Notes under the pieces: generated by a model | Databases searched by the model: none | Told to the model about the DNA's origin: nothing | The model's input: only the letters and a program-made list of their open reading frames with translations | Assembly (NCBI GenBank): GCA_963788655.1 | Contig: CAWBHS010000072.1 | Location: forward strand, 384,001-448,000 | DNA: 64,000 bases | Direction: 5' to 3' | From: an uncultured Verrucomicrobiae bacterium | Lineage (GTDB): Bacteria; Verrucomicrobiota; Verrucomicrobiia; Limisphaerales; JAFGQR01 | Shown: positions 40,805 to 60,074 of the stretch, in pieces | Layout: the number at the start of each line of letters is the position of its first letter | Position numbering within the stretch: the first letter of the stretch is position 1 | Position numbers and translations under genes: made by a program

Positions 40805-43069
40805 ATGAAAACCTTGTTTTGCAATCCGCGAAATTTTCTAGCCCTCGCTGGTCTGCTTGCGGGAATAGACCTCGTTGCCTTCACTTCGCTCGCTGCCCAA
40901 GTCAAGGACGCCGGCGACCAGATTCAAATCGTCACGCCGAACTACCGTCTCGACATCGTCAAGCAGAACTTCCGCTACGGGTTCACCCGACCGGACGGCA
41001 CGGTCATCGCGGCGCCCAACGACGAGTTCGGTCTGGAGTTTGGCGGCGGGCATTCGGTGGGCACGACACTGCGTTCGTCCGCTCCGGAGCAAGTGGTGCT
41101 CGAACGTCACCAATGACAAAGGCGCGCACGCTACGGTGGCCATCGAGCCGGGCGACCACTTCGTTCGCTTCAGCGTGACCCAATCCGAAACGAACCGAAT
41201 TCTGGCGCGCATCGGCGGCATTACGCCAGCGTTCGGGCTGGCGGACCATGCGGCATTCGGACGCACCACCACGGACGTGACCGGTTTTTCCGACGGTCAT
41301 TTCCGTGCGCAGGAACCGCCGGGATCAAAGCGGATGATCAGCAACTTCGTGATCTCGCCGGAGCGGGGCATCGCCACCGTGAACATGCAGAAGAGCATGA
41401 AACTCGTCCGCGTGCGGGCGAACGACACGGCCCAAGGAGTGGCCGCCGCGACGGAGATGCTGGCGTTGTATTATTTCCTCGGGACGCCGCAGGAGATTTA
41501 CGCCGCGTATCTGCGGGCGCGTAACCGGGAAGGTTACCCCGTGGACAAACCGAAATACGAATTCTTCGGCGTGGGCTGGGAGGCCTTTGGCGCGCTGGGC
41601 TGGAACACGAATGAAAAGACCGTCACGGAAAACGTGGAACGCTACTTGCGTCTCGGCTTTCCGCTGGAATGGATGGTGGTCGGCTCCGGTTTCTGGCCGA
41701 ATGAGGATCCGAATTTGCAGGCCACGACCAGCTTTGGGATGTGGGACAAGCAGCGTTACCCCGATCCGCGGAGATTCATTGAGCACTTCAAGAGTCGTGG
41801 GTTGAAATTCTTTCTCGGTCTCCGGATCGCGTTTATCGAGGACGGACCGTATTCGGCGGAGGGCGTGGCGAAGGGCTATTTCCTGAAAGAGAACGGGAAG
41901 GCCAAAGCGTGGCAACTCGGTTTCCCTCGGCGCCCCGCTTACCTGTTGGACGGCGAAAATCCCGAAGCGGTGAAGTGGTATGTGGCCCTTTGCCAAAAGT
42001 GGATGGATTACGGCGTGGATGGTTTCAAGGAAGACCTGTTCGGTTATCGGGTCGCGCATACGCTCGATGGCAACATTGATCCCGTAAACCAAGCGTTGAT
42101 GGAGAAAGGCGTGTTCATCATGGGGCGTAACGCGTATTTAGGCTCCGCCTGCGACATCCACCGAATCGAAGATTTCAACTTCGGCCAAAACCAGGACCGC
42201 GGTCCGATCAACGTGCTGGCGTTTGCCTACAGCGGCTTTCCCTACCCCTATCCCGACATAACCGGCGGCACGTTCGGCGAGGGCCGCAAGACGCCGCCGT
42301 TGACCAGTCCACAAATGCAGAACTACATGATGCGCTTGGCGCAGTTCGATTCCGTGAATCCGGCGATGGCCGTCGGTATGGGACCGTGGCACTTCGGGGA
42401 AAAGGTCGAACAGGTGATGCTCGAGCGGCGCAGTTGCACGCGCGGCTGCAGCCCTACATTTACAGCGCTGCCGTAGATGCCTATGAAACCGGTTTCCCCT
42501 GGACCATGACGCCGCTGCCGCTGGCGTTCCCGAACGATCCGCAGGTCTATGGCCGCGAAAACACCACCGTGCGGGGTTACGAATGGCTGTTCGGCCCGTC
42601 GCTGCTGGCCTGTCCGCTCTACGGCAACGACTACGCCACCGCCACGACGCGTGATGTGTATTTGCCCGCCGGGAAGTGGGTGGATTTCGACACTGGCGAG
42701 GTTCACATGGGGCCAAAGCTACTGCAGAATTTCCCGTTGCCGCCTGGCAAAACGCCGCTTTTCGTCGGCGGCAAAGGCGTGCTCGTGTTGCGCGATCTCA
42801 AGGACGACACTCTCCAGGCCAAGGTTTACCCGATCACGCCCCGCGGCTCCACTTATCGCTTCACGTATCGGGATGGCGTGACCCGCAGTTCCATCGTCAA
42901 CGCCAATACTGGCTGGGACCAACTCGCCGTCCTCGACACGACTGACAACCAACCGGTGAAATTCGAGCGGGAAGCCCAGACCGAAGCTATTCGGTTCGCC
43001 ATCATTCCCGGCCACAATTACCGGGTAAGCGACCGACAGTCATCCAACTCTGGCAAAGCTGGAGATTGA
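40805..43069 (+). CDS. Secreted glycoside hydrolase family 31-like protein; frameshifts ~41105 and ~42425
   Basis: YGVDGFKED nucleophile-like motif; RIEDF; YPDITGG; LQPYIYS..; EWLFGPSLLACP; RDVYLPAGKWVDF...PLFV. Three ORFs join. Confidence 0.8.
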
Positions 43070-44225: not shown

Positions 44226-47200
44226 ATGATTCCGACCTTCAAGCCGTTCTCTCTATTTGCCGCCGTCCTGCTGTTGGCCACCGCGCTGGCGCATGCCGAT
44301 GACCTGGAACAAGCGTTCACCCATCCGCCCCAATCCGCCAAGCCCGGCGTGTGGTGGCATTGGATGGGGTGCAACGTGACGAAGGACGGCATCACCCGCG
44401 ACCTGGAAGCGCTCAAGGCTGCCGGCTTTGGCAGCGCGACGATTTTCGGTATGGCCGATGTTTGCACGCCCTGGGCGGGCCGGATTGAAAACAGTCCAAC
44501 TGCCGGATTGGTTGCGTTCACCGACCCATGGTGGCAACTGGTCCGCCACGCGGCCGCTGAAGGACGCCGGCTGAGTCTCGACGTGGGCATTCACAATTGT
44601 CCCGGTTACGAGAGCAGCGGCGGACCGTGGATCCCGTCGGAGTTGTCGATGCTGGAAGTCTGTTCCTCGCAAACACCCGCCACCGGATCGGGCAGGATCA
44701 GTCTCGCGCTGCCCCAACCGAAGGTCGATCCGCGTTCGACCATGCCCTTTCCCGTGTTCAATCCCGAAACCGGCAAAGTCGAGAAACCGGTGGTGCCAGC
44801 GCGGCAAACCTTTTATCGCGACATTGCCCTGGTGGCTTTGCCCGCCGAAGGCGTGGTGGCGAAGGGGCAGGTGATTAACCTGACCGGCCAGAACGAGTGG
44901 GACGCGCCGCCGGGGAAATGGATCATTTACCGGTTCGGTTACACGACCCAGGGAAAGATGACGCAGCCGAATCAATGGGAGGCCCGCGGATTGGAATGCG
45001 ACAAGATGAGCGAGGCAGCGGTTACGTTCCATATAGACCATCTTCTCAGCGGCATGAAACGTAATCTGGGCGATCTCATCGGCACCGGCCTGAAATACGT
45101 CCTCTTCGATAGCTACGAAGCCGGCAGCCCTTCGTGGACGCCGCGGATGCGCGAGGAGTTCACGGCGCGCCGGGGTTACGACCTCACGCCGTTTCTGGCG
45201 ACCTTCGCCGGACGCACGGTGGGCAGCCCCGCCGACACCGCCAAGTTCAAAGCCGATTTCAATCGGACCATCGAGGATCTTTACCGTGACGTTTACTTCC
45301 CGACTGTGCAACGAATGCTGCACGCGGCGGATCTGCAATTTGCGTGCGAGCCCTATGGCGGGCCGTGGCGCGTGGGCGAAGTCGCGCCGTACGTAGATCG
45401 CGTGATGACGGAATTCTGGACTAGCAACGACGGGTTTCGCGGCAGTGTGCCGGGCGGCATTCTGAACGCGGCCAACGGTGGTTCACACAATATTCTCGCG
45501 GCGGAAGCCTTTACCGGCGCGCCCGAGAACAGTCAGTGGACGGAGTATCCGGAGTGGCTCAAGCCGATTGGCGATGGAGCATTCCTGGCCGGCATCAACC
45601 GGCTCGTGCTGCACCATTGCGTGCTCCAGCCGTGGGACGACCGCTATCGCCCAGGCAACACGATGGGCCGCTGGGGCACCCACTTCGGACGACTCCAAAC
45701 GTGGTGGGGGCAGGGCCATGCTTGGGTGCAATATCTCAGCCGTTGCCAGGCACTCCTGCAATGGGGGCAACCGGCGCCAGACGATTTCGCCAACGAAAGC
45801 GGTCTTTCCGTGCGCAGCCTCCATCGGCGGGGGGAAGGCGCGGATGTCTTCTTTGTCGCCAACCCGGCGCGCACCAGCGGTGCGGCGGAGTGCGTGTTCA
45901 GCCTGGCGGGGCGGCAACCGGAGTTGTGGGATCCGGTCACCGGCAGCATGCGAGATCTGTCGGATTTTCAGATTGTCGATGGCGAAACGTCCCTGTGGTT
46001 GGAGTTCGCGCCGGTGCGAAGTTACTTCATTGTTTTCCGCCGGAAGGTCGCCGCCAACGTGGCGAGGGACCGCGCGAATTTCCCAGTGCTGAGTCCGCGA
46101 GCGGAATTGACAGGTCCTTGGGAAGTAAGCTTCGATCCCCAGTGGGGCGGGCCGGAGCAAGTGCAGTTCGAGCACCTCGACGACTGGACTAAGCGCCCGG
46201 AGCCGGGCATCAAGTATTACAGCGGCACCGCCGTCTATCGGACGACGTTCAACGTCAGCCAATCTGAGATTTTCAAATCTGAAATCTCAATTCCGCCTCT
46301 CCCTCGGTACCGTTCACCACCTCGCGCGCGTGCGACTCAACGGCCAGAATCTGGGCATCATCTGGTGCGCACCATGGAGCGTGGCATTACCCGCCGGCTT
46401 GCTCAAAGCCATTGGCAATCGCCTGGAAATCGAAGTCGTCAACGTCTGGGCCAACCGGCTGATTGGCGACGAACAGGAGCCGCCGGATTGCGAATGGCAA
46501 CCCGGCGACTTGCCCGGGGGCCGCTATCTCAAGCGCTTTCCCGATTGGTTCGTTCACAACGAGCCGCGACCCTCCCAGGGCCGCTATTGTTTCACGACTT
46601 GGAACTACTTCACCAAAGACTCGCCGTTGGTCCCGTCCGGCTTGCTTGGTCCCGTCCAGTTGATGACTGAGGATTGGACTCGGCACGCCCTACCGACTGC
46701 TACCAATCGAGCCAATGCCATCAGGCGCCGAACCAGCAGCCGTTCGACCGCGGCTTTCGAGTCGGACGTGCAGAAAGCCGGATTGGTTGCTTGTGGTCGC
46801 ATCACCGAAGAGCGCGTGGTTCACGCCGGTGGCGGCAGCGACGCCAGCGCGTTGTTCAACGGCACCACGAAAAACGGCTCCGGCGGCGACGAAACCGCAG
46901 ACGACGGCAAGACCTTCCGCGGTTATGGCGCCGGCAGTGTGCTCACCATTCAACTCACTGCGCCGCACGACTTGACCGAAATTCGCACCTTCGCCGGCCA
47001 CCCCGACGGCCGCGCCAGCCAGGGCTACACGGTGTCCGTGGCGCGTGCCGCCGAGCCAAAGAAGTTTGTGGAGCTCACCATGGCCGTGTTGGAATGCGTC
47101 GGCGGTGCATCGGAATTGCGCGCGCCCGTGAAGGCGAAAGCCGTCGTGGCGGTGCGCTTCGAGTTTCAGGACGGCCCGCTCGGCTTCAACGTCTATCGCG

Positions 47201-47238
47201 AAATCAACCTTGTCGGGCAACCGACTAGATCGAGATGA
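44226..47238 (+). CDS. Secreted GH106 (alpha-L-rhamnosidase-like) glycoside hydrolase with an extra C-terminal beta-sandwich; frameshift ~46270
   Basis: PPQSAKPGVWWHWM..NVTKDGITRDLEA; GYESSGGPWI; GLECDKM; FDSYEAG; EPYG; MTEFW; AEAFT; IKYYSGTA; SGLLGPV. Confidence 0.85.
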
Positions 47239-47458
47239 CACGAGGACAGGACGCTTTCTCGTATGGCAGTTGACGGCGTCGGTCGCACGCCCTGAACTGA
47301 CTTGTGGGCTACTGCTTTTACAGAGCTTTTGGACAAGATGCATGTGCGTCTCCAGATACTGACGGGTCGTCAAATCGCACTTCGTGTTGCAGGCTTGCCT
47401 TACCCAGTTTGTGCCTTTACCGTCCGCTTAGACAAGCGACGGAAACTGAAAGTGCCGC

Positions 47459-48331
47459 ATGACTACTGAGAAGTTCCTAAAGAAGCTGCAAGACCACACT
47501 GGTTCCTTCGCCGCCGCCGTGGCGACGAAGGAAGGCGAGTGGATCATCAAAGGCTTCATCGATATTGACCGCCACATCTACACGATTTCGGTGGACACCA
47601 AGATCGTGTCGAAGGTTCTGGAGTTGCTCCTGTTCCCGATGTTTGTCGAGTTTGGTAAGAAACACGGGCTACAAATCGAGTTGTGCCCGCAGCAGAATTT
47701 CTACCCGGACTTGACGTTCACTGAGCCAAGGTCAGGCTGGAAGTTTGCAGTGGACATTAAGAGCACTTACCGGACGAGCGAAACAGAGGTGAACGGGATG
47801 ACGTTAGGCGCGTTCACGGGTTACTTCCGCAATCGCGAGAGCAACAAGAACACTCTATATCCGTACAGCCAATACGCTGGGCACTTTGTCGTTGGTGTGA
47901 TTTACTCCAAGGGCGACGCGGTGGCGGACGAGCGGCGTCAGTTTACATTGGACGAGCTGCCCACAATTCCGTCGGTAATCAAGGATTTCCATTTCTTCGC
48001 GCAGCCGAAATATCGGATCGCGGCCGCACGGCCCGGCAGCGGGAACACGAAGAACATCGGCTCGGTCACGAAGATCGAACACCTGGTCAAGGGCACTGGG
48101 CCTTTTGCCACGCTGGGCGAAGAAGTCTATGATGATTACTGGATGTTCTACCTGACGCGCGACATGGCTCAGGCTCTCAACGTCAAACGGCCTTACGCCA
48201 GTTTAAGGGAATATGCCGACTACAAACAAAAGGGCATCGAATCCATTCGCGCGCACGAAAAGCAGATAGCCAAACTGGCCGCAGAGGAACCGGCGGGAGT
48301 TGAAGACGAATCCACTGAGAACGAGGAATGA
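47459..48331 (+). CDS. Type II restriction endonuclease, EcoRV family
   Basis: DTKIVSKVLEL, QQNFYPDLTF, FAVDIKSTY (PD...DxK), KNTLYPYSQY..H and GSGNTKNIGS parallel EcoRV's SDTKVLS..FE, QQNHYPDF, IDIKTTY and GSGNTTNIGS. Confidence 0.9.
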   Translation: MTTEKFLKKLQDHTGSFAAAVATKEGEWIIKGFIDIDRHIYTISVDTKIVSKVLELLLFPMFVEFGKKHGLQIELCPQQNFYPDLTFTEPRSGWKFAVDIKSTYRTSETEVNGMTLGAFTGYFRNRESNKNTLYPYSQYAGHFVVGVIYSKGDAVADERRQFTLDELPTIPSVIKDFHFFAQPKYRIAAARPGSGNTKNIGSVTKIEHLVKGTGPFATLGEEVYDDYWMFYLTRDMAQALNVKRPYASLREYADYKQKGIESIRAHEKQIAKLAAEEPAGVEDESTENEE

Positions 48332-48332
48332 C

Positions 48333-49280
48333 ATGAGCACACCGCCGTTAGTCCCACCGATCAAATGCCAGGGGATAAAGACCAAGCTGGTCGAGGAAAT
48401 CCGCGCCTTGGCGGCGATGCATGATTATGAGCGGTGGGTGGAGCCGTTCTGCGGCAGTTGCGTCGTGCCACTGAACCTTCAACCGCAACGGGCGCTGCTC
48501 TGCGATTCGAATGTCCACATCATCCGACTCTATCAAGACATTCAGGCCGGACGGCTGACGGCGCCGCGTGTAAAGGCGTTCTTGACGGAGGAAGGGGCGA
48601 AGTTGCGCACCAGGGGCGAAGACCATTTTTACGAGGTTCGCGAGCGCTTCAACGACCGATGTAGCTCGCTGGATTTCCTTTTCCTGAACCGCTCCTGCTT
48701 CAACGGCGTCATGCGCTTCAATCGCTCTGGCAAATTCAACGTGCCGTTCTGCCGGAAGCCAAACCGTTTCGACGTGAAATATGTGTCCAAAATCACGAAC
48801 CAACTTCGCCGGATTGGAGAGGTGATCGCGAACAAAGACTGGGTATTCGAAGCCGCTGATTTCCGAACGACACTGGGCAAGGTGAGAGAAGTTGACTTCG
48901 TATATGCTGACCCACCGTATGCTGGCCGGCATATGGACAAATTCAACTCTTGGTCGGATAAAGATGAGAACGACTTGGCCACCCAATTGAAGCGGCTTTC
49001 TGGCAAGTTCATCCTCTCGAATGGCAAAGCAATAGTTCGGAACCAACGTGCTGTTGGAACAGAATTGACGGAGTCGCGCTTCCAGCTTTTCACTCGGCAG
49101 CATTTCTATCACGTCGGCTCCACTGAAGACTTACGCCACCCGATGACGGAAGCGCTGGTAACCAACTTGTCCGGCGGGCGCTACGCAACAGCACAGCCCG
49201 CCTTGGAACAGATGGTCTTCTTTGAGAAACCGGCAAATGATTTCGGTAGTTCCAGGCCGGAGGCAGAGCGCAAATCATGA
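48333..49280 (+). CDS. Dam/D12-family N6-adenine DNA methyltransferase (M.EcoRV-like)
   Basis: PIKCQGIKTKL; VEPFCGS; FLFLNRSCFNG.MRFN..GKFNVPF; YADPPY; HFYHVG...EALVTN. 49020-49070 looks locally garbled by compensating indels. Confidence 0.9.
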   Translation: MSTPPLVPPIKCQGIKTKLVEEIRALAAMHDYERWVEPFCGSCVVPLNLQPQRALLCDSNVHIIRLYQDIQAGRLTAPRVKAFLTEEGAKLRTRGEDHFYEVRERFNDRCSSLDFLFLNRSCFNGVMRFNRSGKFNVPFCRKPNRFDVKYVSKITNQLRRIGEVIANKDWVFEAADFRTTLGKVREVDFVYADPPYAGRHMDKFNSWSDKDENDLATQLKRLSGKFILSNGKAIVRNQRAVGTELTESRFQLFTRQHFYHVGSTEDLRHPMTEALVTNLSGGRYATAQPALEQMVFFEKPANDFGSSRPEAERKS

Positions 49281-49434
49281 TTTAATGCGCCGTCATCACT
49301 CAGGCGGCGGCACATGAATGGCGCGGAAGGATGATGACCGTGAGGGAGGCTGCCGCGCCCACCCAAGCAGGCTGCAAGAAAATCTCCTCGCCATCGTCAC
49401 AATGGTGCGTAATCTTAGGGTCATATTGGCCCTT

Positions 49435-51688
49435 ATGACGAAAATCTTTCCGCCTGATTACAGTCTGACCGGCGTGAATGCGGCGCTCGCGGTGGAGAAG
49501 GGCCTCGCCGAGGCCGATTGGTACACCACTCCGGTCCCGAAGGCGGAAATGCGCAAGCTCCTGCAGCGCCGCAATGGACCGGCCATCCGCGACACGCGCC
49601 TTGTTGCTGGCCCTGCTGCTGGCTTCTGGTTACGGCACGGTTGTGCTCTGGGGCACTTGGTGGGCGGCGATTCCTTACCTGATTTATGCCGTGCTCTACG
49701 GCACCAGTTCGGACTCGCGCTGGCACGAATGCGGCCACGGAACGGCGTTCAAGACCGACTGGATGAACCGACGTGCTTTATGAACTCGCGTCGTTCATGG
49801 TAATGCGGGAATCCGTGGTCTGGCGCTGGAGCCACACCCGGCATCATAGCGACACTATCATCGTCGGGCGCGATCCCGAAATCCAGGTTCCGCGTCCGCC
49901 CAATCTTCGCGCGCTCGTCCTGAATCTTTTCAACGTGGGCGGCTACCGGACCTACTTCCCGAGCGTGATCCGGCACGCGCTGGGAATCATCTCGGACGCC
50001 GAGCGCACCTTCATCCCGGAAAGCGAATTCCCGAAGGTTTATCGCAATGCGCGGCTCTGTCTTGCTGTTTACGGAGTGGTGATCGCCTCCGCGATCGTTT
50101 GGCATAGCTGGCTTCCGATCTTCCTGTTTGTGTTGCCCCAGTTCTTTGGGACGTGGCTCATGATCGTCCACAATACGACGCAGCACGCCGGACTGGCCGA
50201 GAACGTCCTCGACCACCGGCTCAACTGCCGGACGGTTTACATGAATCCGATCAGCCGGTTTATCTACTGGAACATGAACTACCACGTGGAACATCACATG
50301 TTCCCGCTCGTGCCTTACCATGCGTTGCCCCAATTGCACGCGGTCATCAGAGATGATTGTCCGCCGCCCTATCCGTCCATCTTGGCCGCGTGGCGCGAAA
50401 TTCTCCCGACGCTCCGCCGCCAGGTGAAGGATCCGGCGTACCACGTCAAGCGCTGGTTGCCGCCGCCACGCAATCGGACGCTCGAAGCGACCTACCGCTC
50501 GACCGCCGCGCCTGATGCCGAAGGCTGGGTGGAAGTCTGTGCCGATGCTGATTTGGGCAAGCTGGACGTGATCCGCTTTGACCACGGGAAAAAAACCTTT
50601 GTGCTGGTCCGCGATGGCCACGGCGAGGTCTTTGCCACTGACGGCATCTGCACCCACGGCAACACGCACCTGGCCGACGGACTGGTCCTCGACGGCACGA
50701 TTGAATGTCCGAAACACAACGGGCGTTTCCATCTTGCCGACGGCTCCCCGGCCCGCGTACCGGTCTGCCGCGGATTGGCCACGTATCCGGTCGAGAGCCG
50801 GGACCAGAAACTGTTCCTGAACGCGCACCGACCTGGCGGCGCCGGCGTACGTCACTCAGACGACGCTGCAACTGCGCGTCGTCAGCAATCGCAGCGTGGC
50901 TACGTTTATCAAGGAACTGGTCTTCGAGCCGGTGGGAAAGATCGAGTTCACGCCCGGCGACTACCTGCAATTCGACATCCCGGTTTACGAGGCCATTCGC
51001 TTCCGCGATTTCGACATTCCGGAGCCTTACGCGGCGGTATGGACGGCGCAACATGTCTTCGACCTTGTCGCTCACAATCCCACGGGCGGCCGGCGCAACA
51101 ATTACTCGCTCGCGGGCAATCCCCAGACCGAGTCCACCCTCCGCGTCAACGTCCGCATTGCCACCCCACCGCCGGGACAGGACTGTCCGCCCGGAGTCGG
51201 TTCCGCGCTACATGTTCAGCCTCAAACCCGGCGACACCGTCACCGCCATCGGGCCATTTGGAGATTTCCACATCAAGCCCACGCAGAAGGAAATGGTGTA
51301 TATCGGGGGCGGCTCCGGCATGGCACCGTTGCGGGCCCATATCGCGCGCCTGTTTGAAACCGAGAAGACCCGGCGCCGCGTGCGCTTCTGGTATGGGGCG
51401 CGTTCGCGGCAGGAGCTTTTCTATCAGGATTACTTCGAGGGCATGGCGTCCAAGTTTCCGAACTTCCACTTTCACCTTGCGCTGTCGGCGCCGTTACCAG
51501 AAGACAATTGGACCGGCCATCGTGGTTTCATTCACGAAGTGGTTTTCGAGCAGTATCTGAAATCACACAACAATCTTCGGGCGGTCGAATTCTACCTTTG
51601 CGGACCGCCGCAAATGACCAAAGCTTGCCTGAGGATGCTCGACCAACTGGGGGTGGCCGATTCGCAAATTACCTACGACGAATTCTAA
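49435..51688 (+). CDS. Fusion of a MocD-like fatty-acid-desaturase-type di-iron oxygenase, a MocE-like Rieske ferredoxin and an NqrF-type FAD/NAD(P)H reductase. Four apparent frameshifts (~49600, ~49770, ~50855, ~51205).
   Basis: His boxes HECGH, HTRHH and HVEHH. Rieske CTHG...CPKH in the same ORF (49773-51560). Then VVSNRSVATFIKEL, NYSLA, NVRIATPPP, GPFGDF, IGGGSGMAP, FWYGARS, YLCGPP, YDEF-stop. Confidence 0.8.
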
Positions 51689-51704
51689 CTTTCCCATCAA
51701 TTTC

Positions 51705-52616
51705 ATGCCGCGATTCACCAATGACGGCTCAACCGACGCGCCCAAGTTGCGCGTCTATTTGAATCTGGACAGTCTCGTTGACCTGCGCCCCGACACGATC
51801 TGGCCGGGTTTGACCGGCTTGGCGCAAATGCAACGTCTCGCCGCGGACGGTTTCGAAGGGGCGCAATGGACTGAGGACAGCGAGCCGCCTTTTGGTAGCC
51901 CGATACCGTTTTGCGGCTGTGGTCGCATCAACCGTCCGACTGAGGCCGATCCGCTGGCCGCCAAACATGCCGAGCGCGGTTACACTTGTCTGACGGTTCA
52001 CGCTGGCTGGGGATTGGAGGACGACGCGGACGTGGATCGCTTGGTTGAAGCGATTCTCGTGGCTTCGGATCGCCATGCATTGCCCATTTTCATCGAAACC
52101 CACCGGGCCACCATCACCCAGGATCTCTGGCGAACCGTGCGGATTGCTCGGAAATTTCCCGAAGTGCGTTTCAACGGCGATTTCAGCCACTACTACACGG
52201 GGCAGGAAATGGTTTATGGTGGCATGGAAAAGAAACTCGATTTCATGAAGCCGATCCTGGAGCGGATTGGTTTCCTGCACGGCCGGATTTCCAGTCCCGG
52301 TTGTATGCAGGTTCCGGTGGATGCCGGTGCCGCGCGTCCGCAGCAGGCGCATGGCGCGATCAACTACCTCGAACACTACCGGGATCTCTGGACCCGCGCC
52401 ATGCAGGGATTCCTTCGCGCTGCCACGCCTGGCGAGTACCTCATCTTTGCCCCGGAATTGTTGTCGGGCACTCACTACTATGCCCGGATGTTCCCGGATG
52501 CGCAGGGAAGGTTGGTCGAGGAAACCGATCGTTATCAGCAGGCGTTGATCTACCAACCGATCGCCCGTGAGTGTTTCACGCAAGCGCAACACCGCCTCGC
52601 GGCCAAGCCGACCTGA
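51705..52616 (+). CDS. Xylose-isomerase-like TIM barrel protein (sugar phosphate isomerase/epimerase family)
   Basis: ADGFEGAQ; IETHRATITQD; NGDFSHY; LHGRI; FAPELL. Confidence 0.75.
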   Translation: MPRFTNDGSTDAPKLRVYLNLDSLVDLRPDTIWPGLTGLAQMQRLAADGFEGAQWTEDSEPPFGSPIPFCGCGRINRPTEADPLAAKHAERGYTCLTVHAGWGLEDDADVDRLVEAILVASDRHALPIFIETHRATITQDLWRTVRIARKFPEVRFNGDFSHYYTGQEMVYGGMEKKLDFMKPILERIGFLHGRISSPGCMQVPVDAGAARPQQAHGAINYLEHYRDLWTRAMQGFLRAATPGEYLIFAPELLSGTHYYARMFPDAQGRLVEETDRYQQALIYQPIARECFTQAQHRLAAKPT

Positions 52617-52769
52617 CGAGCGGGCAAGTTCCAACACAATGGCGGTCAAAGCCGATTCTGGCAAAACCGACACATTCGCTTCATATTGCGTTCTAATTGT
52701 CCAATGAAACGACGATTGATCAGCATGGTCCTCATCGCGGTTCTGCGGATGCCGACCCAAAACCGATGG

Positions 52770-52793
52770 CGCGAATTCTAAGAAGAAAGACGC
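52770..52793. promoter_or_regulatory. Putative XylR-type operator
   Basis: CGC-gaa-TTCT-a-AGAA-gaaag-ACGC upstream of the FAD oxidoreductase, matching 38958-38981. Confidence 0.45.
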
Positions 52794-52936
52794 AGGCTCT
52801 CCTGTTGGCCCGGCAGCGTCCCAATTATAGTGGTTTCAGAATGTGCAATTATGCGCGCAAGTCAGAACGTTTGCCGCATCAATTTGAAGATGATCAAGAA
52901 CCGAATATTTGCGCCAGTCCCGCGAACCGCCGGGCC

Positions 52937-55222
52937 ATGTTGAAAGAACCACCATCCGAATCGACCCGCCGACCAACCACGCGGCAGCTCAGCGGCGACC
53001 TCGCCATTGTGGGCGGCGGATTGGCCGGGACGTGCTGCGCCATTACGGCGGCGCGCGCCGGATTGAAGGTGGTGCTGCTCCAGGACCGGCCCGTGCTGGG
53101 CGGTAATGCCTCCAGCGAAATCCGGCTGTGGATTCTGGGCGCGACTTCACACATGGGGAACAACAACCGTTGGGCTCGCGAAGGCGGTGTGGTCGATGAG
53201 ATTCTGGTCGAAAACATGTACCGCAATCCGGAGGGCAATCCTTACATCGTCGATTCCATCCTCCTCGAAAAAGTGGCGGCCGAGCCGAACCTCACGCTGC
53301 TGCTCAACACCGTTGTCCACGACTTGGAAAAGTCCGATCCCGACACCATCCAGTCCCTCCGCGCTTTTTGCTCGCAGAATTCGACGGCGTACGAAATCGG
53401 CGCGCCGTTGTTCGTGGACGCCAGCGGCGATGGCGTTATGGGTTTTCTGGCGGGCGCCGCCTTCCGCGTGGGAGCGGAAGCCCGAACGGAGTTTGGCGAG
53501 CTGTTTGCCCCCCGCCAGGCGACCCGCGAATTGCTCGGCCACACGCTTTACTTCTACTCGAAAGACACCGGGCGTCCGGTGAGGTTTGTCCCGCCGAGTT
53601 TCGCCTTGCAGGACATCACCAAGATTCCGCGCTTCCGCGACTTCAACACCCGAGACTTCGGTTGCCGGCTATGGTGGCTCGAATGGGGTGGCCAGCTCGA
53701 CACCATCCAGGACAGCGAGCAGATCAAATGGGAACTGTGGAAGGTCGCTTATGGGGTGTGGAACCACATCAAGAACTCCGGTCAATATCCGGAGGCCGAG
53801 ACGCTCACGCTCGAATGGGTTGGCACCATTCCCGGCAAACGGGAGAGCCGGCGTTTCGAAGGCGACTATATGTTGACCCAGCAGGACATCGTGGAGCAGC
53901 GCCAGCATCCGGACGCGGTTTCCGTCGGCGGTTGGGCCATTGACCTTCATCCCAGCGACGGTGTGTTCAGTGAGAAACCTGCCTGCCAGCAGTGGCATTC
54001 CAAGGGCGTTTACCCAATTCCTTATCGCTGCCTCTACAGTCGCAACATCACGAACCTGTTCCTCGCCGGTCGCATCATCAGCGCTTCGCACGTGGCGTTT
54101 GGTTCCACCCGCGTGATGGCCACGTGCGCGCACAGTGCCCAGGCGGTGGCCTTGGCCGCGGCGGTGTGCCGACGCCACGGTCTGAAACCGCGCGAAGCGG
54201 GACGTCCACCACACCTTGCCGCATTGCAACGGGATTTGCTCCGCACGGGCCAGTTCATTCCGGGCCATGCGTTGATCGACGAAGAAGACCTTGCGCGGCA
54301 AGCCACTCTGAGCGCGAGCAGTGAATTACGCTTGGCGTCGTTGCCCCCCAACGGTGAACTGCTGGGGCTTACGAAAGCCTGGGCCATGCTGTTGCCCGTG
54401 CCGCTCGGCCCCATGCCCCCAATGGCTGTCCGACTCGACGTGGCGCAAGCCACCGAATTGCGCGCCGAATTGCGCGTCGGCAGCAAGCTGGGCAATTACA
54501 CGCCGGACGTGACGCTGGCCGTGTTGAAGCTTCCGCTGGCACCGGGGCGGAAGCAGCTCGTGCCGCTGAATTTTGAAGTTTCCATCGCCGAGCCGCAATA
54601 TGCGTTCGTTTGTCTGATGGCCAATGAGCACGTGGCGGTGCATCTGAGTGACCAGCGCGTGACCGGCGTGCTCGCGGTGACGAACCAGGCTAATTACGCG
54701 GTGGCCAAAGCTTCACGTCAGGAACCGCCGCCCGATTCCGGCCTGGACGCCTTCGAGTTTTGGCCCGCGCAACGGCGTCCCGGCGGGAAGAACTTCGCGT
54801 TGCAGCTTGAACCATCGCTTGACGTTTTCGGCGTCGGCAATTTGGTCAACGGCATCGTGCGTCCGACGCGCCAACCCAACGCCTGGGTGGCAGCATTTAA
54901 TGACAAGCAACCGAGCGTGACCCTGCAATGGTCCGAGCCCCGGACCATTGGCCGGATCGAACTTGTCTTCGACACGGATTACGATCATCCGATGGAATCG
55001 GTGCTGATGGGACACCCGGAGAACGTCATGCCGTGCTGCGTGCAACAATTCAAGATTGAAGACAGTTCCGGCCACGTGTTGGCTGAATGTGCGGACAATC
55101 ACCAATCCCGGCGAATGATTCGCTTGGAGCCACCGGTTACCACAAATCGGCTGATCCTTACCATGCATGCGCCCAATCCGCGGACGCCGGCGGCGCTTTA
55201 CGAGCTGCGCTGCTATCGATGA
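52937..55222 (+). CDS. FAD-dependent oxidoreductase (FAD_oxidored family) with a C-terminal F5/8-like beta-sandwich
   Basis: VGGGLAG.CCAITAAR; DRPVLGGNASSE; FVDASGDG; GKRESRRFEGDY; GGWAIDLH; IPYRCLYS..NLFLAGRIISASHVAFGSTRVM. Confidence 0.9.
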   Translation: MLKEPPSESTRRPTTRQLSGDLAIVGGGLAGTCCAITAARAGLKVVLLQDRPVLGGNASSEIRLWILGATSHMGNNNRWAREGGVVDEILVENMYRNPEGNPYIVDSILLEKVAAEPNLTLLLNTVVHDLEKSDPDTIQSLRAFCSQNSTAYEIGAPLFVDASGDGVMGFLAGAAFRVGAEARTEFGELFAPRQATRELLGHTLYFYSKDTGRPVRFVPPSFALQDITKIPRFRDFNTRDFGCRLWWLEWGGQLDTIQDSEQIKWELWKVAYGVWNHIKNSGQYPEAETLTLEWVGTIPGKRESRRFEGDYMLTQQDIVEQRQHPDAVSVGGWAIDLHPSDGVFSEKPACQQWHSKGVYPIPYRCLYSRNITNLFLAGRIISASHVAFGSTRVMATCAHSAQAVALAAAVCRRHGLKPREAGRPPHLAALQRDLLRTGQFIPGHALIDEEDLARQATLSASSELRLASLPPNGELLGLTKAWAMLLPVPLGPMPPMAVRLDVAQATELRAELRVGSKLGNYTPDVTLAVLKLPLAPGRKQLVPLNFEVSIAEPQYAFVCLMANEHVAVHLSDQRVTGVLAVTNQANYAVAKASRQEPPPDSGLDAFEFWPAQRRPGGKNFALQLEPSLDVFGVGNLVNGIVRPTRQPNAWVAAFNDKQPSVTLQWSEPRTIGRIELVFDTDYDHPMESVLMGHPENVMPCCVQQFKIEDSSGHVLAECADNHQSRRMIRLEPPVTTNRLILTMHAPNPRTPAALYELRCYR

Positions 55223-55482
55223 TTTGGTTCTTACGACAGGGCGTGAATACTTCAGTTCGCCGCGAACGTGGCTTACGGTAGGCGGAGACGCTGTCGCGCG
55301 CCAACTCCTGAATTAACCACTTACACTGGAACATGAGGCAGAGGAACCTGATTCGATTCGGCTCTCGGTTGCTCAGTCAGACCCTCCTGAACGTCGGCTG
55401 CTACGAGTGACGTGATTCCACCTGCCCCCCCCCCGCCACCGGTATTCTGTGCGTCCGTCTCGATGACTTGTCGCCCTGACCA

Positions 55483-58119
55483 TTACCTGTTCATCTTCTT
55501 CGTCAACGCTGGCAGCACTACCAGTGGCTGCACGTTGGTTTCCGCGGTGATGCGGTCGAATACCTGGATTTCCGACAGCAGGACACCCCACCCCGGACGG
55601 CAGGCACACTTCACTCGGACGTAGCGCGCTTGGAGCGGTTGTTCGAAGAGGATGCGATACGCGTAGGCCAATCGGCCGCCCGCCGGCAGGTCATCGAACA
55701 GCGAGGATTGGTCCAGTTCCCAGGGAACGAAATCGGCCGGCGGATCGAAGACCTGGTTAAAGGTGGCAGCGCCGGCGGATGAAAAGGTCTTGCCGTCCAT
55801 CGAGGTTTCCACGGTGATCGTGTCGGGGTAGGTGAGATGAAAGCCGCTCTCTTGGCCAGCGTGAACCCGGACGACCGCCACTGTCTCAGGGCGGCCCAGG
55901 TCAATGGTGGCCACTGGGGAGAAGTCCGGATCGAAGATCACACTGGTGGGCATGTATTTGACTGAAACGTAGGTGTCCGGCGGCGCGATGATGCCGTCGG
56001 TGAGATCGGTTCCCCCGTCGGGATTGCGTTCGCTCTGCTGGCCTTGCAGCGTGTAGGACTTGCCGCGCGCCAGGTTCGTCCCCCAATGAAACCGCGTCCA
56101 GGACGGCTTCGCGCCGGGACCGACATCCTGGCCGTCCGAGTAGCCCGGCTTTACACTTTGACCGTCCGGCCCGCTGCCTTGGAGATTCACACGGACCCAT
56201 TTCATGGTGGGATTCCGGAAGCCGCCGACGTTGATGGTGTATTCGTGCGCGGGCGAAGTCACCCGTTCGGTGTGCCGCCGTTCGAGGTCGCCTGATTCGC
56301 GATGTTCGATCCAGCAATAGGTCACTTCGATGGGCGCGAACGCCGCCGCCCGCGGTTGATGATGCACGGTCATCAACGCCATCTGAATGCCAGGCCCGGA
56401 ATAGCTTTTGGGATAGTTCTCGGTCTGGAACTCGTAGCGCAAATAGGCCGTGCGGATTCCGGCTGGCACGGAGGAAACCGGCGCCTCCACCATCAAGTCG
56501 AAGCGATCCGTGTCCTTGGTTTTCTCGTAGTCGGAGATGTAGTTCCGGTCGTCCCACGAGTGCAACAGGGTCACTCGATTCTTGACGCCTTTCACGCACA
56601 CCGTTCCACCATAGGTGAGGTCCGTGATCGGTGTGGGGGTTTCGATCTTCCACGTCGCGCGGCAAGGCTTTCCCTTTTCCGCGGGACGCAGCGTGGGCTT
56701 GTAGAAGCCCGGCGTCGGCTCCACGTCGAGGTCCTGTTCGGCATAAACAGTCCGGTGATGGTTGCCGCCAATGATGCTGGGCTGGAACTGGATTGTTTCA
56801 ACTTGCGGCCCCAGCCGAAGCTGAACCCGATTGGCCCCGCGAACCAGTCCCGGCAGCGCCGGCCGGTTCAGTTGCGTGATCGTTTCAATGGCGAGCGCCG
56901 AGAGTTGGGAATCGTCCGCCGCCAGCTCCACTTTGACGAGATACTCCATGACGCCGGCCACCTCGTCGAGCAACGACGCCTGACCGTTGGCACCCAGGTC
57001 AATTTTCGTCCAGTTGATGCCGGTGTCGCGCGATACCGACACCGATACGCCGCGGCCGCGCAGCGACAATTTAGCGGAAGTGACCACGTTGGCCGCGGAC
57101 ACTTTGAACACCACCTGGCCGCGGCCTTTCACGCCGTCGGGCGTCCAGTTCACGCCGGCATCGGAATACACGAGCGTCCGCGTCGCCGGATGGTGCAGAT
57201 CGGGGGCGTAGTGCCAGACGCCGTTGGCGCGGATGTTCCGGTCGGTGTCCACGTCCTGGTTACCACGCACTGGCCGGAACGTACGGTGTCCATCCGAGGC
57301 CAGCGGCGAGAAGTAGCGCGTGTAGTATTCACCCGGGCGGAGGTTCAACACATAGCGCCGTCCCCACCGGGCGTAGAGACTGTAGTGGGTAACGTCGTTC
57401 GGCGGCTTGAACGAATCCCAGCCATTCGCCAACGTGCGTTGGTACTCGACCGGGTGGTCCGCGGCGCAACGCCATCCGCGGTGATCGTCCGGACCCTCGA
57501 CCGGATTGGTGCCGCACTCGGGCGCGAAATTCTCCAGGTAGAACCGCGGGTTCTTCTCGATCTCACGGACCGACGCCACTTCCCCCCGGTCATTGAAGCA
57601 GTAGAAACTCATCGAGTCGTCAAACATGTGCCAGGTTTGGCCATTGTCCCAGGAACACTCGCAGACCGTGTGGTCGCCGAGCTGCACGTAATGGGCCTGC
57701 CACCCCATCCGGAGCCAGAGCGCGTTGTTGACGCCGGAGATGATGCCACAATTGCAGTAGCCATAACTGTTGAACATCCGGATCGGGTCGAGCACTTCGT
57801 GGCCTTCCTCTTTGGGATTGGTCTTCTGTTTGCGGAGCCGCTGGGACCAGCGCCAGATGGCGATGGCCTGTTCCTGTGGGGTGGCATACTGCGAAGTGAT
57901 CGAGCGCAAGTAACTGTCGATGTCCGTAAGGTCGGGGGCGGAGTCGGTGACCAAGGTGATGTTGTAAACAGCGCTTCGGATTGCGGAGGCCATTTCTGAT
58001 CCGGATACCGGAAGTGGTGTCTGGGCACTGCCGTTGCTGCCTCCCGGCATTACAACCACCGCAAGGTATATGCTGGCGAGCAAAAGGTGTTTCATTCGTG
58101 TCTTCATCCTGTTGGCCAT
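55483..58119 (-). CDS. Secreted protein with an N-terminal transglutaminase-like core and a C-terminal F5/8 (discoidin)-like domain
   Basis: Signal peptide; GYCNCG...DHTVCE...WHMFDD (Cys-His-Asp); C-terminal NLARGK...LTDG...TIDLG...ARYVRV...LSEIQVF. Confidence 0.7.
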   Translation of the reverse strand: MANRMKTRMKHLLLASIYLAVVVMPGGSNGSAQTPLPVSGSEMASAIRSAVYNITLVTDSAPDLTDIDSYLRSITSQYATPQEQAIAIWRWSQRLRKQKTNPKEEGHEVLDPIRMFNSYGYCNCGIISGVNNALWLRMGWQAHYVQLGDHTVCECSWDNGQTWHMFDDSMSFYCFNDRGEVASVREIEKNPRFYLENFAPECGTNPVEGPDDHRGWRCAADHPVEYQRTLANGWDSFKPPNDVTHYSLYARWGRRYVLNLRPGEYYTRYFSPLASDGHRTFRPVRGNQDVDTDRNIRANGVWHYAPDLHHPATRTLVYSDAGVNWTPDGVKGRGQVVFKVSAANVVTSAKLSLRGRGVSVSVSRDTGINWTKIDLGANGQASLLDEVAGVMEYLVKVELAADDSQLSALAIETITQLNRPALPGLVRGANRVQLRLGPQVETIQFQPSIIGGNHHRTVYAEQDLDVEPTPGFYKPTLRPAEKGKPCRATWKIETPTPITDLTYGGTVCVKGVKNRVTLLHSWDDRNYISDYEKTKDTDRFDLMVEAPVSSVPAGIRTAYLRYEFQTENYPKSYSGPGIQMALMTVHHQPRAAAFAPIEVTYCWIEHRESGDLERRHTERVTSPAHEYTINVGGFRNPTMKWVRVNLQGSGPDGQSVKPGYSDGQDVGPGAKPSWTRFHWGTNLARGKSYTLQGQQSERNPDGGTDLTDGIIAPPDTYVSVKYMPTSVIFDPDFSPVATIDLGRPETVAVVRVHAGQESGFHLTYPDTITVETSMDGKTFSSAGAATFNQVFDPPADFVPWELDQSSLFDDLPAGGRLAYAYRILFEQPLQARYVRVKCACRPGWGVLLSEIQVFDRITAETNVQPLVVLPALTKKMNR

Positions 58120-58121
58120 TT

Positions 58122-60074
58122 CTAAAATTCCCAGCGCCGTGTCCTGGCGGCGCCTTTGAGTTCGATCCAGTCAATCTCTACTGGCTGCTGTTGCGCCGGG
58201 AGATAAACGCGGAAAATGCCGAGCGGGCCTTTCGCCGGGACGGCAACCGTGACCGTCTGCCAGTCATTTCGTTGCAGGGTGAACGCTGCCGAATTCGCCG
58301 GAATCGGCTGGGTGCCGGGTGGAATCCACTCGACCTTGCCCGGCCCGCCTTCGGCAGAGTGAGCGCGGAATGTGACCACGGCCGGACCAGCAGTGCCGGC
58401 CCCGACACCCAGAAATGGCGAGTTGTTCCTTCCCTTCAGCGTGACAACGCCCTCCTTCACCCACGCTTCGCAATTGCGGGCCTTCCAGCCTTGGAGTTTT
58501 GGATCGCTCACGTCCTTGGCAGGTGCTTTGGCGGCGGATTTGGGCGACGCCTTCTGTCGCAACTGCGGCTTGCCTTCGTCTTCGGGATGATAACGCGCAG
58601 GATCGAATGCGGGATTGGGGACTGGGACGACCGCCTTGGTGTCGGTCAGGAAACGTGTCGATGAGCGCATCCATTTGTTTGACGCGCCCTGGCTGTTGCT
58701 TGGCGAGGTCGTCCTGTTCGCTTGGGTCGTTGCGCAGGTTGAAAAGTTTCCAGCGGTGGGCGCCGTTTTCGCCGCCGTAAAAAATGCGGATGAGTTTCCA
58801 ATCCCCCTGATGGACAGCCACCGACGGCGGCAGCCAATCGGGCACTTTGGGATCGTGGGGAAAATAGGTGAATATGGCCTCGCGCTGGAGCGGTAGCCCC
58901 TTCAGCGCCGGCACGATGCTGATGCCGTCGAAACGCTGCTCCGGCTGCGGCTTCAGAGCCAGCATGTCCAGGATCGTCGGATAGAAATCGCAGCTTTGCA
59001 CCACCGCGTCGCTGCGCGAACCTGGCGGCGTGACGCCCGGCCAGATCACCACCATCGGCTCGCGAATGCCGCCTTCATAGACGGTGGCTTTGCCGCCGCG
59101 CAACGGCGCATTGCTCGTCGGCGTGGTGCCGTCAATTTCGTTATACATGTTGCCGCCGTTGTCGGAGAAGAAGACGATGATCGTGCGGTCGGCAATGCCC
59201 AACCGGTCGAGCGCGTCGAGCAGCGTGCCGACCGCGTCGTCCATGCTCTCGACCATCGCGGCATACGTGGGGCTGCGCTGCGGATTGTTTGGATTGGCGC
59301 GGGCGCGATACTTTTTAATAAGCGCCGGTTTCGCATCGAAGGGTGCGTGGACACTGAACATCCAATAATTCAGAAAGAATGGCTCGTCCTTGTGCTTCTC
59401 CATCCAGGCCGACGGCCTCTTTTGCCATCCGATCCTCGATGTGCTCGTGGGGCGTGTCGGGATCAAAGTCCGGGAAATTTCCACGGTGCCACGTAACTGC
59501 CCGCCGGGCCGGGGCCAGGCCAGTGAGGAATATCCACATCGAATCCCTGCTCCAGTGGTGAATAGGGCGGATGACCCAGATGCCACTTCCCAAAGTGCCC
59601 AGTGGTATAACCGGCGTCCTTCAACGATTCAGCCAGCGTGTAATAGGTCGTGTTCAGCCGGGTGGCCGGCTTGGGGCCCACTGCTTTCTCGCCCGGCGGC
59701 CCCTTCGTGCCCGGCGTCGCTTGCAACACGACCTGCGGCAGATGACAATTGGGAGTGGTGATGCCGGTGCGTGCGGGACTGAGACCGGTCATGATACTCG
59801 ACCGCGTCGGGGAGCACAGCGGACTGGCCGCATACGCATGGGTGAACGTCATCCCGCGCCGGGCCAGCCGCTCGACGTTCGGCGTTTGGTAAAAGGTCGT
59901 GTGGCCGTAAAGCGTCGTATCCGCCCAGCCCAGATCGTCGGCGAGGATGAAGAGGATATTGGGCGGTCGTTCGGCGGCGAATAAACCGACAGCGCCGAGA
60001 AGCCAGACCTGAATGGCAAGCAAAAGCCCTTTCCTGTTCAAGTCGAACACGGGCGGCGGGAGATGAATGCTCAT
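58122..60074 (-). CDS. Sulfatase (S1, Cys-type) with a C-terminal extension; several frameshifts (~59480, ~59410, ~58660)
   Basis: [62 protein letters not shown]. Confidence 0.88.

Follow-up and report, generated by a model that had tools for sequence, protein, structure and literature searches.

The stretch analysed here, which we call the window, comprises 64,000 nucleotides from the genome of an uncultured Verrucomicrobiae bacterium (NCBI GenBank assembly GCA_963788655.1, our G000; contig CAWBHS010000072.1, positions 384,001 to 448,000 of the forward strand), and the positions below are counted from its first letter. At 49435-51688 it carries a gene, OX, that encodes a membrane di-iron oxygenase of MocD type, a Rieske domain of MocE type and, from an NqrF-type reductase, the half that binds FAD and NADH, followed by a smaller gene, TIMx, that recurs as its downstream partner. 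In the deposited sequence the frame of OX is broken four times, into five segments (A to E below). The homologue at L004, a locus in a genome of the same order (G004), is a single unbroken open reading frame (ORF) of 775 codons and served as tblastn query. The features of the locus, with the frame switches called by a codon-usage Viterbi path, are as follows.

49435..51688, + strand: OX, the whole three-domain oxygenase gene, from the ATG at 49435 to the TAA at 51686-51688; about 745 codons in five frame segments

49435..49599, + strand: segment A, a conserved N-terminal soluble stretch (DYSLTG...AVEKGLAEADWY...PVP...RDT), 67% identical to L004

49600, + strand: frame break 1, one surplus base (a C after CGC fits), placed to within a few bases; Viterbi switch at 49597

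49601..49768, + strand: segment B, the first hydrophobic hairpin and His box 1 (HECGH), from FA_desaturase profile positions 2-44 and homologue hydropathy

49769, + strand: frame break 2, one surplus base (AAC-C-GAC); Viterbi switch at 49767

49770..50852, + strand: segment C, the remaining di-iron oxygenase (HTRHH, HVEHH, QHAG/DHR) and then the Rieske domain, from Pfam

50526..50789, + strand: Rieske [2Fe-2S] domain, ligands CTH...CPKH, residues 252-339 of the window ORF 49773-50870; best family TIGR02377 (MocE_fam_FeS)

about 50853, + strand: frame break 3, one surplus base within about 50850-50856, in the linker between Rieske domain and reductase; Viterbi switch at 50825

about 50854..51207, + strand: segment D, the FAD-binding half of the NqrF-type reductase (VATFIKEL, RRNNYSLA, NVRIATPPP), 78% identical to L004

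51208, + strand: frame break 4, one surplus base (GCG-C-TAC); Viterbi switch at 51184

51209..51688, + strand: segment E, the NAD(H)-binding half (GGGSGMAP, FWYGARS, CGPP), ending in YDEF and the stop codon, from Pfam and TIGR01941

51705..52616, + strand: TIMx, the conserved downstream partner, 303 aa, starting 16 nt after the OX stop codon

Against the window, the L004 protein gives five collinear tblastn matches, in frames +3, +1, +2, +3 and +1, which together span query residues 19-775 at 57-78% identity per segment. Each of the four breaks is a +1 frame move that a surplus C would fit, deletion of one base at about 49600, 49769, about 50853 and 51208 yields the residue spacing of the homologue exactly, and no stop codon lies within any of the five segments. 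An initial annotation, made from the letters of the window alone, had proposed four indels here, and had seen at about 50855 a frame change with neither stop codon nor start signal; the four single-base shifts are those indels, and that frame change is the third of them. It falls in the linker, which has no start signal, is free of stop codons in either frame and is about 10-15 residues long (10 after removal of one base, the same as in L004). Segment A is common to rhizobial MocD, matches to mocD beginning at query residues 6-14. Among the best 80 public loci, none exceeds 71.4% identity to the window copy.

Pfam assigns FA_desaturase (PF00487, cut-off 29.7 bits) to segment C at 101.4 bits and to segment B at 20.9 bits, Rieske at 63.1 bits, and NAD_binding_1 to segment E at 67.9 bits; intact homologues reach 119-133 bits for FA_desaturase. 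The best family for the Rieske part is TIGR02377 (MocE), whose 110.7-112.9 bits lie under the curated cut-off of 136.15. For the reductase, the NCBIfam nqrF model TIGR01941 (profile length 405) matches segment D over positions 133-240 (80.7 bits) and segment E over positions 243-403 (232.3 bits), while the reductase part of a homologue scores 339 bits against a cut-off of 295, over profile positions 133-403 only. This part is 46-56% identical to NqrF of two phyla and matches the solved NqrF FAD domains in PDB at E 1.7e-83 to 1e-77, where the best match outside NqrF, MmoC, has E 2.7e-17. The likeness to NqrF, first read from short motifs, is thereby upheld, and the motifs themselves are present in the translations (HECGH, HTRHH, HVEHH, VATFIKEL, NVRIATPPP, FWYGARS, LSAPLPEDNWTGHRGFIHEV and CGPP). 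An expectation that homologues would combine FA_desaturase, Rieske, FAD_binding_6 and NAD_binding_1 was right for three of these families, which occur together in single ORFs, but not for FAD_binding_6, which remains below threshold in intact homologues (19.9 against 21.1 bits) and was not found by Pfam in the window pieces.

The residues that would bind the cofactors are conserved throughout. In an alignment of 44 three- and two-domain members, 11 histidines of the oxygenase domain are invariant, including those of HxxxH, HxxHH and HxxHH, as are the Rieske ligands C411, H413, C430 and H433, and the window itself retains HECGH, HTRHH and HVEHH in the oxygenase, CTH...CPKH in the Rieske domain and RRNNYSLA, GGGSGMAP and CGPP in the reductase. 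Hydropathy of a homologue restricts hydrophobic stretches to the N-terminal domain. A sequence search of the oxygenase domain against solved structures returned two spurious rows only (E 0.013-0.034), and among NCBIfam models there were weak matches to the desaturase DesB (E 1.4e-8) and to the arginine hydroxylase GntB.

Reading the window copy as one protein depends on the four surplus bases being assembly errors, which we consider likely. In the same assembly (contig C45:51013-58956) the frame of rpoB falls into 3 pieces and that of rpoC into at least 6, the latter being broken at least 5 times in 4 kb; such fragmentation of these genes is hard to explain except by assembly indels, and because both are essential and broken in the same manner as OX, assembly error is the likely cause of the OX breaks as well. 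At least five other window genes are split across overlapping frames (those for a GH31 protein, a sulfatase, LTD proteins, an Ig-rich giant protein and a GH94-like protein, in the regions 101-5106, 19325-25658, 29967-31338, 40875-43069 and 58264-60074), and a two-domain paralogue of OX on contig C34 is likewise frame-split together with its MetE-like neighbour. Along the window the Viterbi path changed frame 25 times in the manner of a frameshift, which is 0.43 per kb of coding sequence, as compared with 0.11-0.93 per kb in eight other 64-kb pieces of the assembly and a median of 0.10-0.14 per kb in 50 loci of other assemblies, counts that are only rough, since the detector is crude and its false positives alone amount to about 0.1 per kb.

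With four breaks over its 2.25 kb, OX has about 1.8 per kb, set beside the 0.43 per kb that the crude detector gives for the whole window; all four share one direction, and two long window ORFs, of 5.6 kb and 4.3 kb, are unbroken. These points would suit a dead gene whose four frameshifts are real mutations, and public reads offer no counterweight, since the contigs from two soil runs, in which 5-6% of the sampled words occurred, reached no break site, with identical read-contig pieces limited to 50136-50320 and 51621-51771. We nevertheless regard a dead gene as rather unlikely: besides the damage to rpoB, rpoC and at least five further window genes, the broken copy keeps all its cofactor motifs, has no in-frame stops or deletions, equals its homologues in length once four bases are removed, and is followed by an intact TIMx. 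With about one indel per few kb, even in rpoB and rpoC, this assembly has indels throughout, and broken frames in it should therefore not be taken as pseudogenes without reads.

Fusion of the three domains in one polypeptide, as first proposed for the window, is plain in relatives. In addition to the unbroken 775-aa ORF of L004, a single ORF of at least 741 codons is present in 73 of the 80 best public loci, with a typical length of about 755 aa, and an intact single ORF with FA_desaturase, Rieske and NAD_binding_1 also occurs at P0001; no stop and restart between Rieske domain and reductase, which had been named as grounds for abandoning the proposal, was seen in intact relatives. The best 120 database proteins found with the full-length query are 748-809 aa long and 69-99% identical, and all carry the same three Pfam families; they are named either 'NqrF' or 'MocE subfamily Rieske protein'. 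A HMMER scan of 1.84 billion representatives with the oxygenase-Rieske query gave 4479 proteins at E<=0.001 and 240 at E<=1e-30, among them forms with three domains (760 aa), forms with two (456-498 aa) and stand-alone proteins (about 320-370 aa). At one genome per species, relatives are encoded in at least 578 stretches, and the locus counts in this text refer to the best 80 of these (neighbourhoods to the 78 of the 80 that had neighbours). By NCBI title the 80 are assigned to Verrucomicrobiota (43), Acidobacteriota (24), Planctomycetota (4), Chloroflexota (3) and others, and all are metagenome-assembled genomes (MAGs). The fused family is abundant in public data and is not a peculiarity of the window locus.

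The genome of the window itself holds a second relative, the C34 paralogue (G000:C34; L003:1150-2656), which consists of oxygenase and Rieske domains with no reductase, is 55-58% identical to the window copy and frameshifted, and lies directly after a frameshifted MetE-like gene, that is, one resembling cobalamin-independent methionine synthase. L045, titled as a Pseudomonadales bacterium, has an oxygenase that nests among Verrucomicrobiota rows, and its genome grouped with our sample of the window's phylum; its public title may be a mislabel.

The NqrF name that many members bear, given by the NCBI and JGI pipelines, has a simple origin in that the fused proteins pass the cut-off of TIGR01941 (339 against 295 bits). 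We nonetheless exclude on domain make-up that OX is subunit F of a Na+-translocating NADH:quinone reductase, and hold that function to be vanishingly improbable. The match is limited to profile positions 133-403, and the N-terminal helix and plant-type [2Fe-2S] domain of NqrF are replaced by the oxygenase and Rieske domains. In agreement with the earlier remark that no other nqr genes are nearby, Pfam found none among 39 window ORFs; neither nqrB nor a full-length nqrF was found in the whole assembly (86% complete), and 4 of 5 other carrier genomes, reached through other loci, are also without a full nqrF. In a sample of 151 genomes from the phylum of the window, a full-length nqrF is present in 21, while 10, including that of the window, have the C-terminal-only match that marks the fusion. 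Because the fused proteins pass the model and carry the name, the apparent spread of Na+-NQR is inflated, and recognising them as sugar demethylases would correct a systematic database error in which members are labelled sodium-pump subunits.

Phylogeny separates the two groups as well. A reductase tree was built from 40 fusion rows (alternate ones of those retrieved), 34 rows of NqrF drawn from two phyla and 5 rows of a distant outgroup. In it the fusion reductases form one clade on a long stem (ultrafast bootstrap 100, SH-aLRT 99) next to true NqrF, which is a moderately supported sister clade (91/76), although the program warned that the long fusion and outgroup branches meet, so that a sister position and one nested within NqrF are not separated. 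A search of the reductase part against shorter proteins for the nearest true NqrF returned only fusion fragments. Rows of different phyla are mixed within the fusion clade, a pattern that suggests transfer between phyla. The oxygenase tree (59 rows, quick search, midpoint root, with L090 left out as an incomplete sequence) places all 26 three-domain rows within one clade of 31 (SH-aLRT 99), in which the nested 'two-domain' rows L031 and P0003 may be cut or frameshifted three-domain genes; two-domain forms are basal to the fused clade, and stand-alone forms, including rhizobial MocD, lie outside. This topology fits, but does not prove, a stepwise history in which the Rieske domain joined first and the reductase later.

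Kinship to MocD and MocE, likewise claimed at the outset, is close: the oxygenase and Rieske domains are 52-54% identical (E about 1e-131, 93-97% covered) to adjacent mocD and mocE genes on rhizobial plasmids, the oxygenase gene being annotated there as mocD or as 'hydrocarbon oxygenase MocD-like'. The idea of an NqrF module recruited into a one-chain oxygenase also agrees with the data, in that the MocD and MocE parts are kept and MocF is replaced by the NqrF-type module. A membrane-lipid desaturase or hydroxylase with a built-in electron supply would account for the FA_desaturase scores of 101-133 bits and for the weak DesB match, and membrane desaturases with separate FNR-type partners exist. 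It is, however, a very unlikely function for OX, whose oxygenase groups with MocD-type proteins on the tree, shows no sequence similarity detectable to a solved desaturase or AlkB, and has sugar genes rather than lipid genes as neighbours; the superfamily, moreover, also hydroxylates polar small molecules, as the weak GntB match recalls.

The most distinctive of these neighbours is TIMx. It has no match in Pfam or NCBIfam, so that no subfamily can be assigned, but its predicted structure (pLDDT 87, pTM 0.89) is a xylose-isomerase-like TIM barrel; the 'isomerase' of the initial annotation thus finds support in the model and none in Pfam. Foldseek matched the model to UlaE (E 1.8e-7), and the VIA comparison gave tied Z scores of 16-17.7 over 220-243 residues for ketose 3-epimerases, Art22, IolE and the C-glycoside deglycosidase subunits DgpB/C. 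E131, D159, H192 and E251 are invariant in 17 sequences, and we take them to be the canonical E-D-H-E metal-ligand set of xylose isomerase-like barrels. The window protein is 42-70% identical to 16 members of the cluster (about 296 aa) found at position +1 of other loci. TIMx occurs in 19 of the 78 loci, in 18 of them at +1 on the same strand and in one at +2; for 17 of those 18 +1 genes the start falls in the range from -44 to +48 nt relative to the OX stop codon. In the sample of the window's phylum all three strong matches to the TIMx subfamily (E <1e-100) lie directly after OX, weaker ones lying elsewhere, and since strong matches are always found directly behind it, OX and TIMx make up a cassette. 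Against plasmids, TIMx returned only 'sugar phosphate isomerase/epimerase' genes of 24-30% identity, none of them beside rhizobial mocD.

The wider neighbourhoods were taken as six genes to either side with a crude ORF picker and clustered, the cluster representatives being annotated. A GalM-like aldose 1-epimerase (mutarotase) is present in 25 of the 78 loci, always on the same strand and mostly at -1. AraC regulators occur in 20 (13 + 7), XylE-like sugar porters in 15, HAD phosphatases in 8, AP_endonuc_2 TIM barrels in 7, RhaT in 6 and RhaM in 3, and some loci have GFO_IDH_MocA and GMC oxidoreductases. Loci such as L059 combine an AraC regulator, mutarotase, OX, TIMx and a porter. At least one of mutarotase, TIMx, sugar porter, AP_endonuc_2, RhaT, RhaM and MFS_1 is found in 46 loci, and corrinoid methyl-transfer genes in 9; the supposed linkage of homologues to sugar genes is thereby extended beyond the window. 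Within three genes of the oxygenase there are also, in 1-4 loci each, GH2, GH28, GH29, GH43, GH51, GH78, GH94, GH127, GH120, apiosidase-like and melibiase genes.

The window is itself of this kind. Upstream of OX a string of genes on the same strand encodes an MFS transporter, GH31, GH16 and GH106 proteins and an EcoRV-type restriction-modification pair; downstream are TIMx and a PF12831 FAD oxidoreductase and, beyond these on the opposite strand, sulfatases and a GH78-type rhamnosidase. Pfam matched all of the GH31, GH16, GH106, GH78-type, sulfatase and MFS neighbours that had been listed from the translations. The restriction-modification pair (47459-49280) consists of an EcoRV-type endonuclease (PF09233, E 8e-104) and a D12-class N6-adenine methyltransferase that overlap by 32 nt, and it stands, on the same strand, between GH106 and OX, inside what is apparently a glycan-utilisation gene string. 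The 841-aa PF12831 'FAD dependent oxidoreductase' after TIMx (52697-55222) has a parallel at L020:12396-14021, where a 541-aa PF12831 protein is the +1 neighbour of the oxygenase. Farther off, an ORF of 1865 aa (19325-24922) has a CotH kinase domain, four lamin-tail domains and Ig domains, and more giant proteins with LTD and Ig/NHL repeats are encoded at 101-5106 and 31766-36082. A promoter and terminator scan of 47000-56000 found fewer sites than in shuffles.

Methyl-group chemistry is also represented beside the oxygenase. The corrinoid methyltransferase parts in the 9 loci are MtaA/CmuA-like proteins of the URO-D fold, MtgC/MtbC-like corrinoid proteins, RACo/AcsV/RamA-like reductive activases and MtaB-like proteins, the last at 402 bits, below the equivalog cut-off of 720. 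Full sets of MtaB-like protein, corrinoid protein, RACo-like activase and MtaA-like protein are present at L051:12260-17654 (an Opitutaceae MAG) and L088:14628-20060 (an Acidobacteriaceae MAG); our impression is that a methanol-type set is, to our knowledge, unusual in the phyla of these families. Five genomes with corrinoid loci have 3-7 B12-binding domains in total each. Small corrinoid proteins number only 1-3 per genome, and in 4 of these five genomes the OX locus contains one of them. At L057:12279-13466 (Acidobacteriaceae MAG) the gene immediately downstream of the oxygenase encodes a formaldehyde dehydrogenase of the glutathione-independent kind (TIGR02819, 713 bits, cut-off 637). Its BLAST cluster has two further members, but these are Zn-ADHs of 27-30% identity and unrelated to it, and we rejected them.

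On balance we incline to the view that OX is a self-sufficient, O2- and NADH-dependent demethylase of O-methyl sugars. Electrons would pass from NADH to FAD in the C-terminal NqrF-type reductase, from FAD to the MocE-type Rieske [2Fe-2S] domain, and from there to the His-box di-iron centre in the MocD-type membrane domain at the N terminus, where O2 would be activated. The methyl group of an imported, glycan-derived O-methylated monosaccharide would then be hydroxylated, and the resulting hemiacetal would give the free sugar and formaldehyde. Candidate substrates are 2-O-methyl-xylose and 2-O-methyl-fucose of pectin rhamnogalacturonan II (RG-II), methyl-rhamnose and methyl-galactose; the occurrence of the first two in RG-II is described in the available text of PMC10154630. 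Mutarotase and the isomerase/epimerase-like barrel TIMx would pass the freed sugar on. In this reading the domain make-up, the cofactor motifs, the kinship and the gene neighbourhoods are observed, and the path of the electrons, the class of substrate and the formaldehyde release are inferred.

The same genes leave room for a different oxidation by the same self-sufficient oxygenase, either hydroxylation of the C6 methyl group of 6-deoxy sugars such as rhamnose and fucose or C-H oxidation to a keto-sugar that the TIM-barrel partner would isomerise, epimerise or dehydrate. RhaT (6 of 78 loci), RhaM (3 of 78) and nearby GH78, GH106 and GH29 genes, some of them in the window too, would suit such an oxidation. 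So would the tight coupling of TIMx, or the AP_endonuc_2 barrels of 7 further loci, the known members of the fold acting on ketoses, keto-glycosides and inososes, and the GFO_IDH_MocA and GMC oxidoreductases of some loci. We consider such an oxidation unlikely: it leaves the corrinoid genes in 9 loci and the formaldehyde dehydrogenase in one unexplained, we know of no precedent for it in this enzyme class, and MocDEF, of all relatives studied by genetics the nearest, is linked to a methyl ether.

That same relative raises the alternative of O-methyl cyclitols or inosamines (pinitol, ononitol, rhizopine-like compounds) as substrates, OX being a fused equivalent of MocDEF and TIMx taking the place of MocC/IolE-type barrels. 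IolE is among the tied structural matches to TIMx (Z 16.2-16.9), sugar-porter MFS transporters can carry inositols, and the 52-54% identity to rhizobial MocD and MocE points the same way. Joint action of mocC and mocDEF in rhizopine catabolism, as given in the accessible part of PMC10107442, would also accord with this substrate class. It is quite unlikely even so, since the commonest neighbour, the GalM-like aldose 1-epimerase (25 of 78), has aldose anomers as substrates, no iol operon came to notice in the neighbour clusters that were annotated, glycoside hydrolases and rhamnose genes point to glycan-derived aldoses, and rhizobial TIM-barrel genes share only 24-30% identity with TIMx and are not beside mocD. 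For pinitol, the part of PMC9788770 at hand describes P450-type demethylases of fungi and reports no bacterial demethylation.

Several observations tell against sugar demethylation by OX. The substrate cannot be named from sequence. No formaldehyde dehydrogenase adjoins the oxygenase in more than 1 of 78 loci, and 32 of 78 have no sugar-handling neighbour of the kinds counted; nor are the loci independent, many being from Acidobacteriaceae and Opitutaceae, and their ORFs were crudely called. A partner resembling TIM-barrel isomerases, epimerases or dehydratases is superfluous for demethylation, and may indicate keto-sugar or cyclitol chemistry instead. For the window copy, whose four break sites no public read contig reaches, a real pseudogene keeps a small probability. 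That MocDEF demethylates its substrate is a genetic model, reportedly that of Bahar (1998). Literature searches yielded neither a study devoted to the fused family nor a member that has been assayed, and no paper that combines fatty acid desaturase, Rieske and NqrF; the accessible part of PMC12857756 contains no MocD or Rieske term.

Methyl ethers block normal sugar breakdown, and the only sugar demethylase known to us, which is also the only one that literature searches found, is a marine P450 system. It is possible, if doubtful, that the OX-TIMx cassette represents an unrecognised route for methyl-ether sugars of plant, moss and algal glycans in soil and freshwater Verrucomicrobiota and Acidobacteriota, with TIMx as a new enzyme of the xylose-isomerase fold, paired in some genomes with a complete corrinoid MtaB/MtaC/MtaA-like system for anoxic removal of the same methyl groups, and that OX is the first membrane di-iron sugar demethylase. 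Were this so, the corrinoid system and OX would form an oxic/anoxic pair for one catabolic step. If OX does demethylate sugars, the use of methylated pectin, moss and algal-wall sugars by widespread soil, peat and lake bacteria would be explained, their metabolism would have an additional source of formaldehyde, and OX would offer a compact NADH-driven membrane oxygenase for biocatalysis.

Of the known systems, rhizobial MocDEF is the closest, the 'ferredoxin oxygenase complex' for catabolism of rhizopine (3-O-methyl-scyllo-inosamine), with mocDEF-like clusters on plasmids of Rhizobium and Sinorhizobium. Its MocD and MocE are a membrane His-box oxygenase and a Rieske protein in the same order as in OX, with the N-terminal soluble stretch in common, and MocD branches just outside the fused clade. 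By contrast, MocDEF consists of three polypeptides and OX of one; MocF, annotated as ferredoxin-NAD+ reductase or FAD-dependent oxidoreductase, is replaced in OX by the unrelated NqrF-type FNR module; mocA/B/C/R form the context of MocDEF, whereas OX loci have mutarotase, sugar porter and TIMx, with no mocA/B/C/R seen; and MocDEF belongs to rhizobia, the fused family to Verrucomicrobiota, Acidobacteriota, Planctomycetota and Chloroflexota. R. etli CIAT 652 has, one after the other, a LacI regulator, mocD, mocEa, mocFa and a PanB-like gene; its mocF is separate, codes for about 409 aa and bears the annotation ferredoxin-NAD+ reductase. At the rhizobial loci L095 (R. etli CIAT 652 plasmid pA, 9001-12503) and L096, a LacI-family regulator is followed by mocD-mocE-mocF-like genes and then by a PanB-like gene for 3-methyl-2-oxobutanoate hydroxymethyltransferase, which may be a link to C1 handling; enzymes of the PanB family use methylene-tetrahydrofolate. 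According to the accessible part of PMC10107442, mocDEF, mocC and mocBA are rhizopine catabolic units and mocDEF is needed for catabolism of the methyl ether rhizopine. PMC5132102, as far as its text was available, places mocDEF immediately upstream of a second gene for xylose isomerase in those P. syringae pathovars that have woody hosts.

NqrF (PDB 2r6h, 4u9u, 8a1t chain F) has FAD and NADH domains like those of OX, and in both proteins an Fe-S domain stands directly N-terminal to the FAD domain; in OX, the NqrF-type module follows the Rieske domain at the place where NqrF carries its plant-type [2Fe-2S] domain. OX is without the N-terminal membrane helix, that plant-type domain and the nqrA-E context, and the proposed electron acceptor would be the fused Rieske domain in OX as against NqrD/E in NqrF. 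A similar division of labour is known from AlkB with rubredoxin and from XylM/XylA, His-box di-iron membrane hydroxylases that attack methyl groups and are fed from NAD(P)H through an Fe-S carrier. OX would follow the same logic, but its carrier is a Rieske domain, all its parts are in one chain, and no sequence similarity to the solved members is detectable.

A functional analogue may be seen in the P450, ferredoxin and ferredoxin reductase that act on 6-O-methyl-D-galactose in marine porphyran degraders (PMC6292453, PMC9400963, PMC10033563, in the parts accessible). As described there, this system removes the methyl ether from the sugar in an O2-dependent reaction that yields free sugar and formaldehyde, and it is encoded in glycan-utilisation loci. 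It is a soluble haem P450 with separate partners and a demonstrated activity, whereas OX is an unrelated membrane di-iron enzyme with fused partners, the activity of which we infer. Corrinoid methyltransferases (MtaB/MtaC/MtaA with a RACo-type activase), by contrast, are unrelated to OX in both proteins and chemistry; they lie beside the oxygenase in 9 of the 78 loci and are absent from the window, and because their action on methyl groups needs no O2, their substrates may be the same as those of OX.

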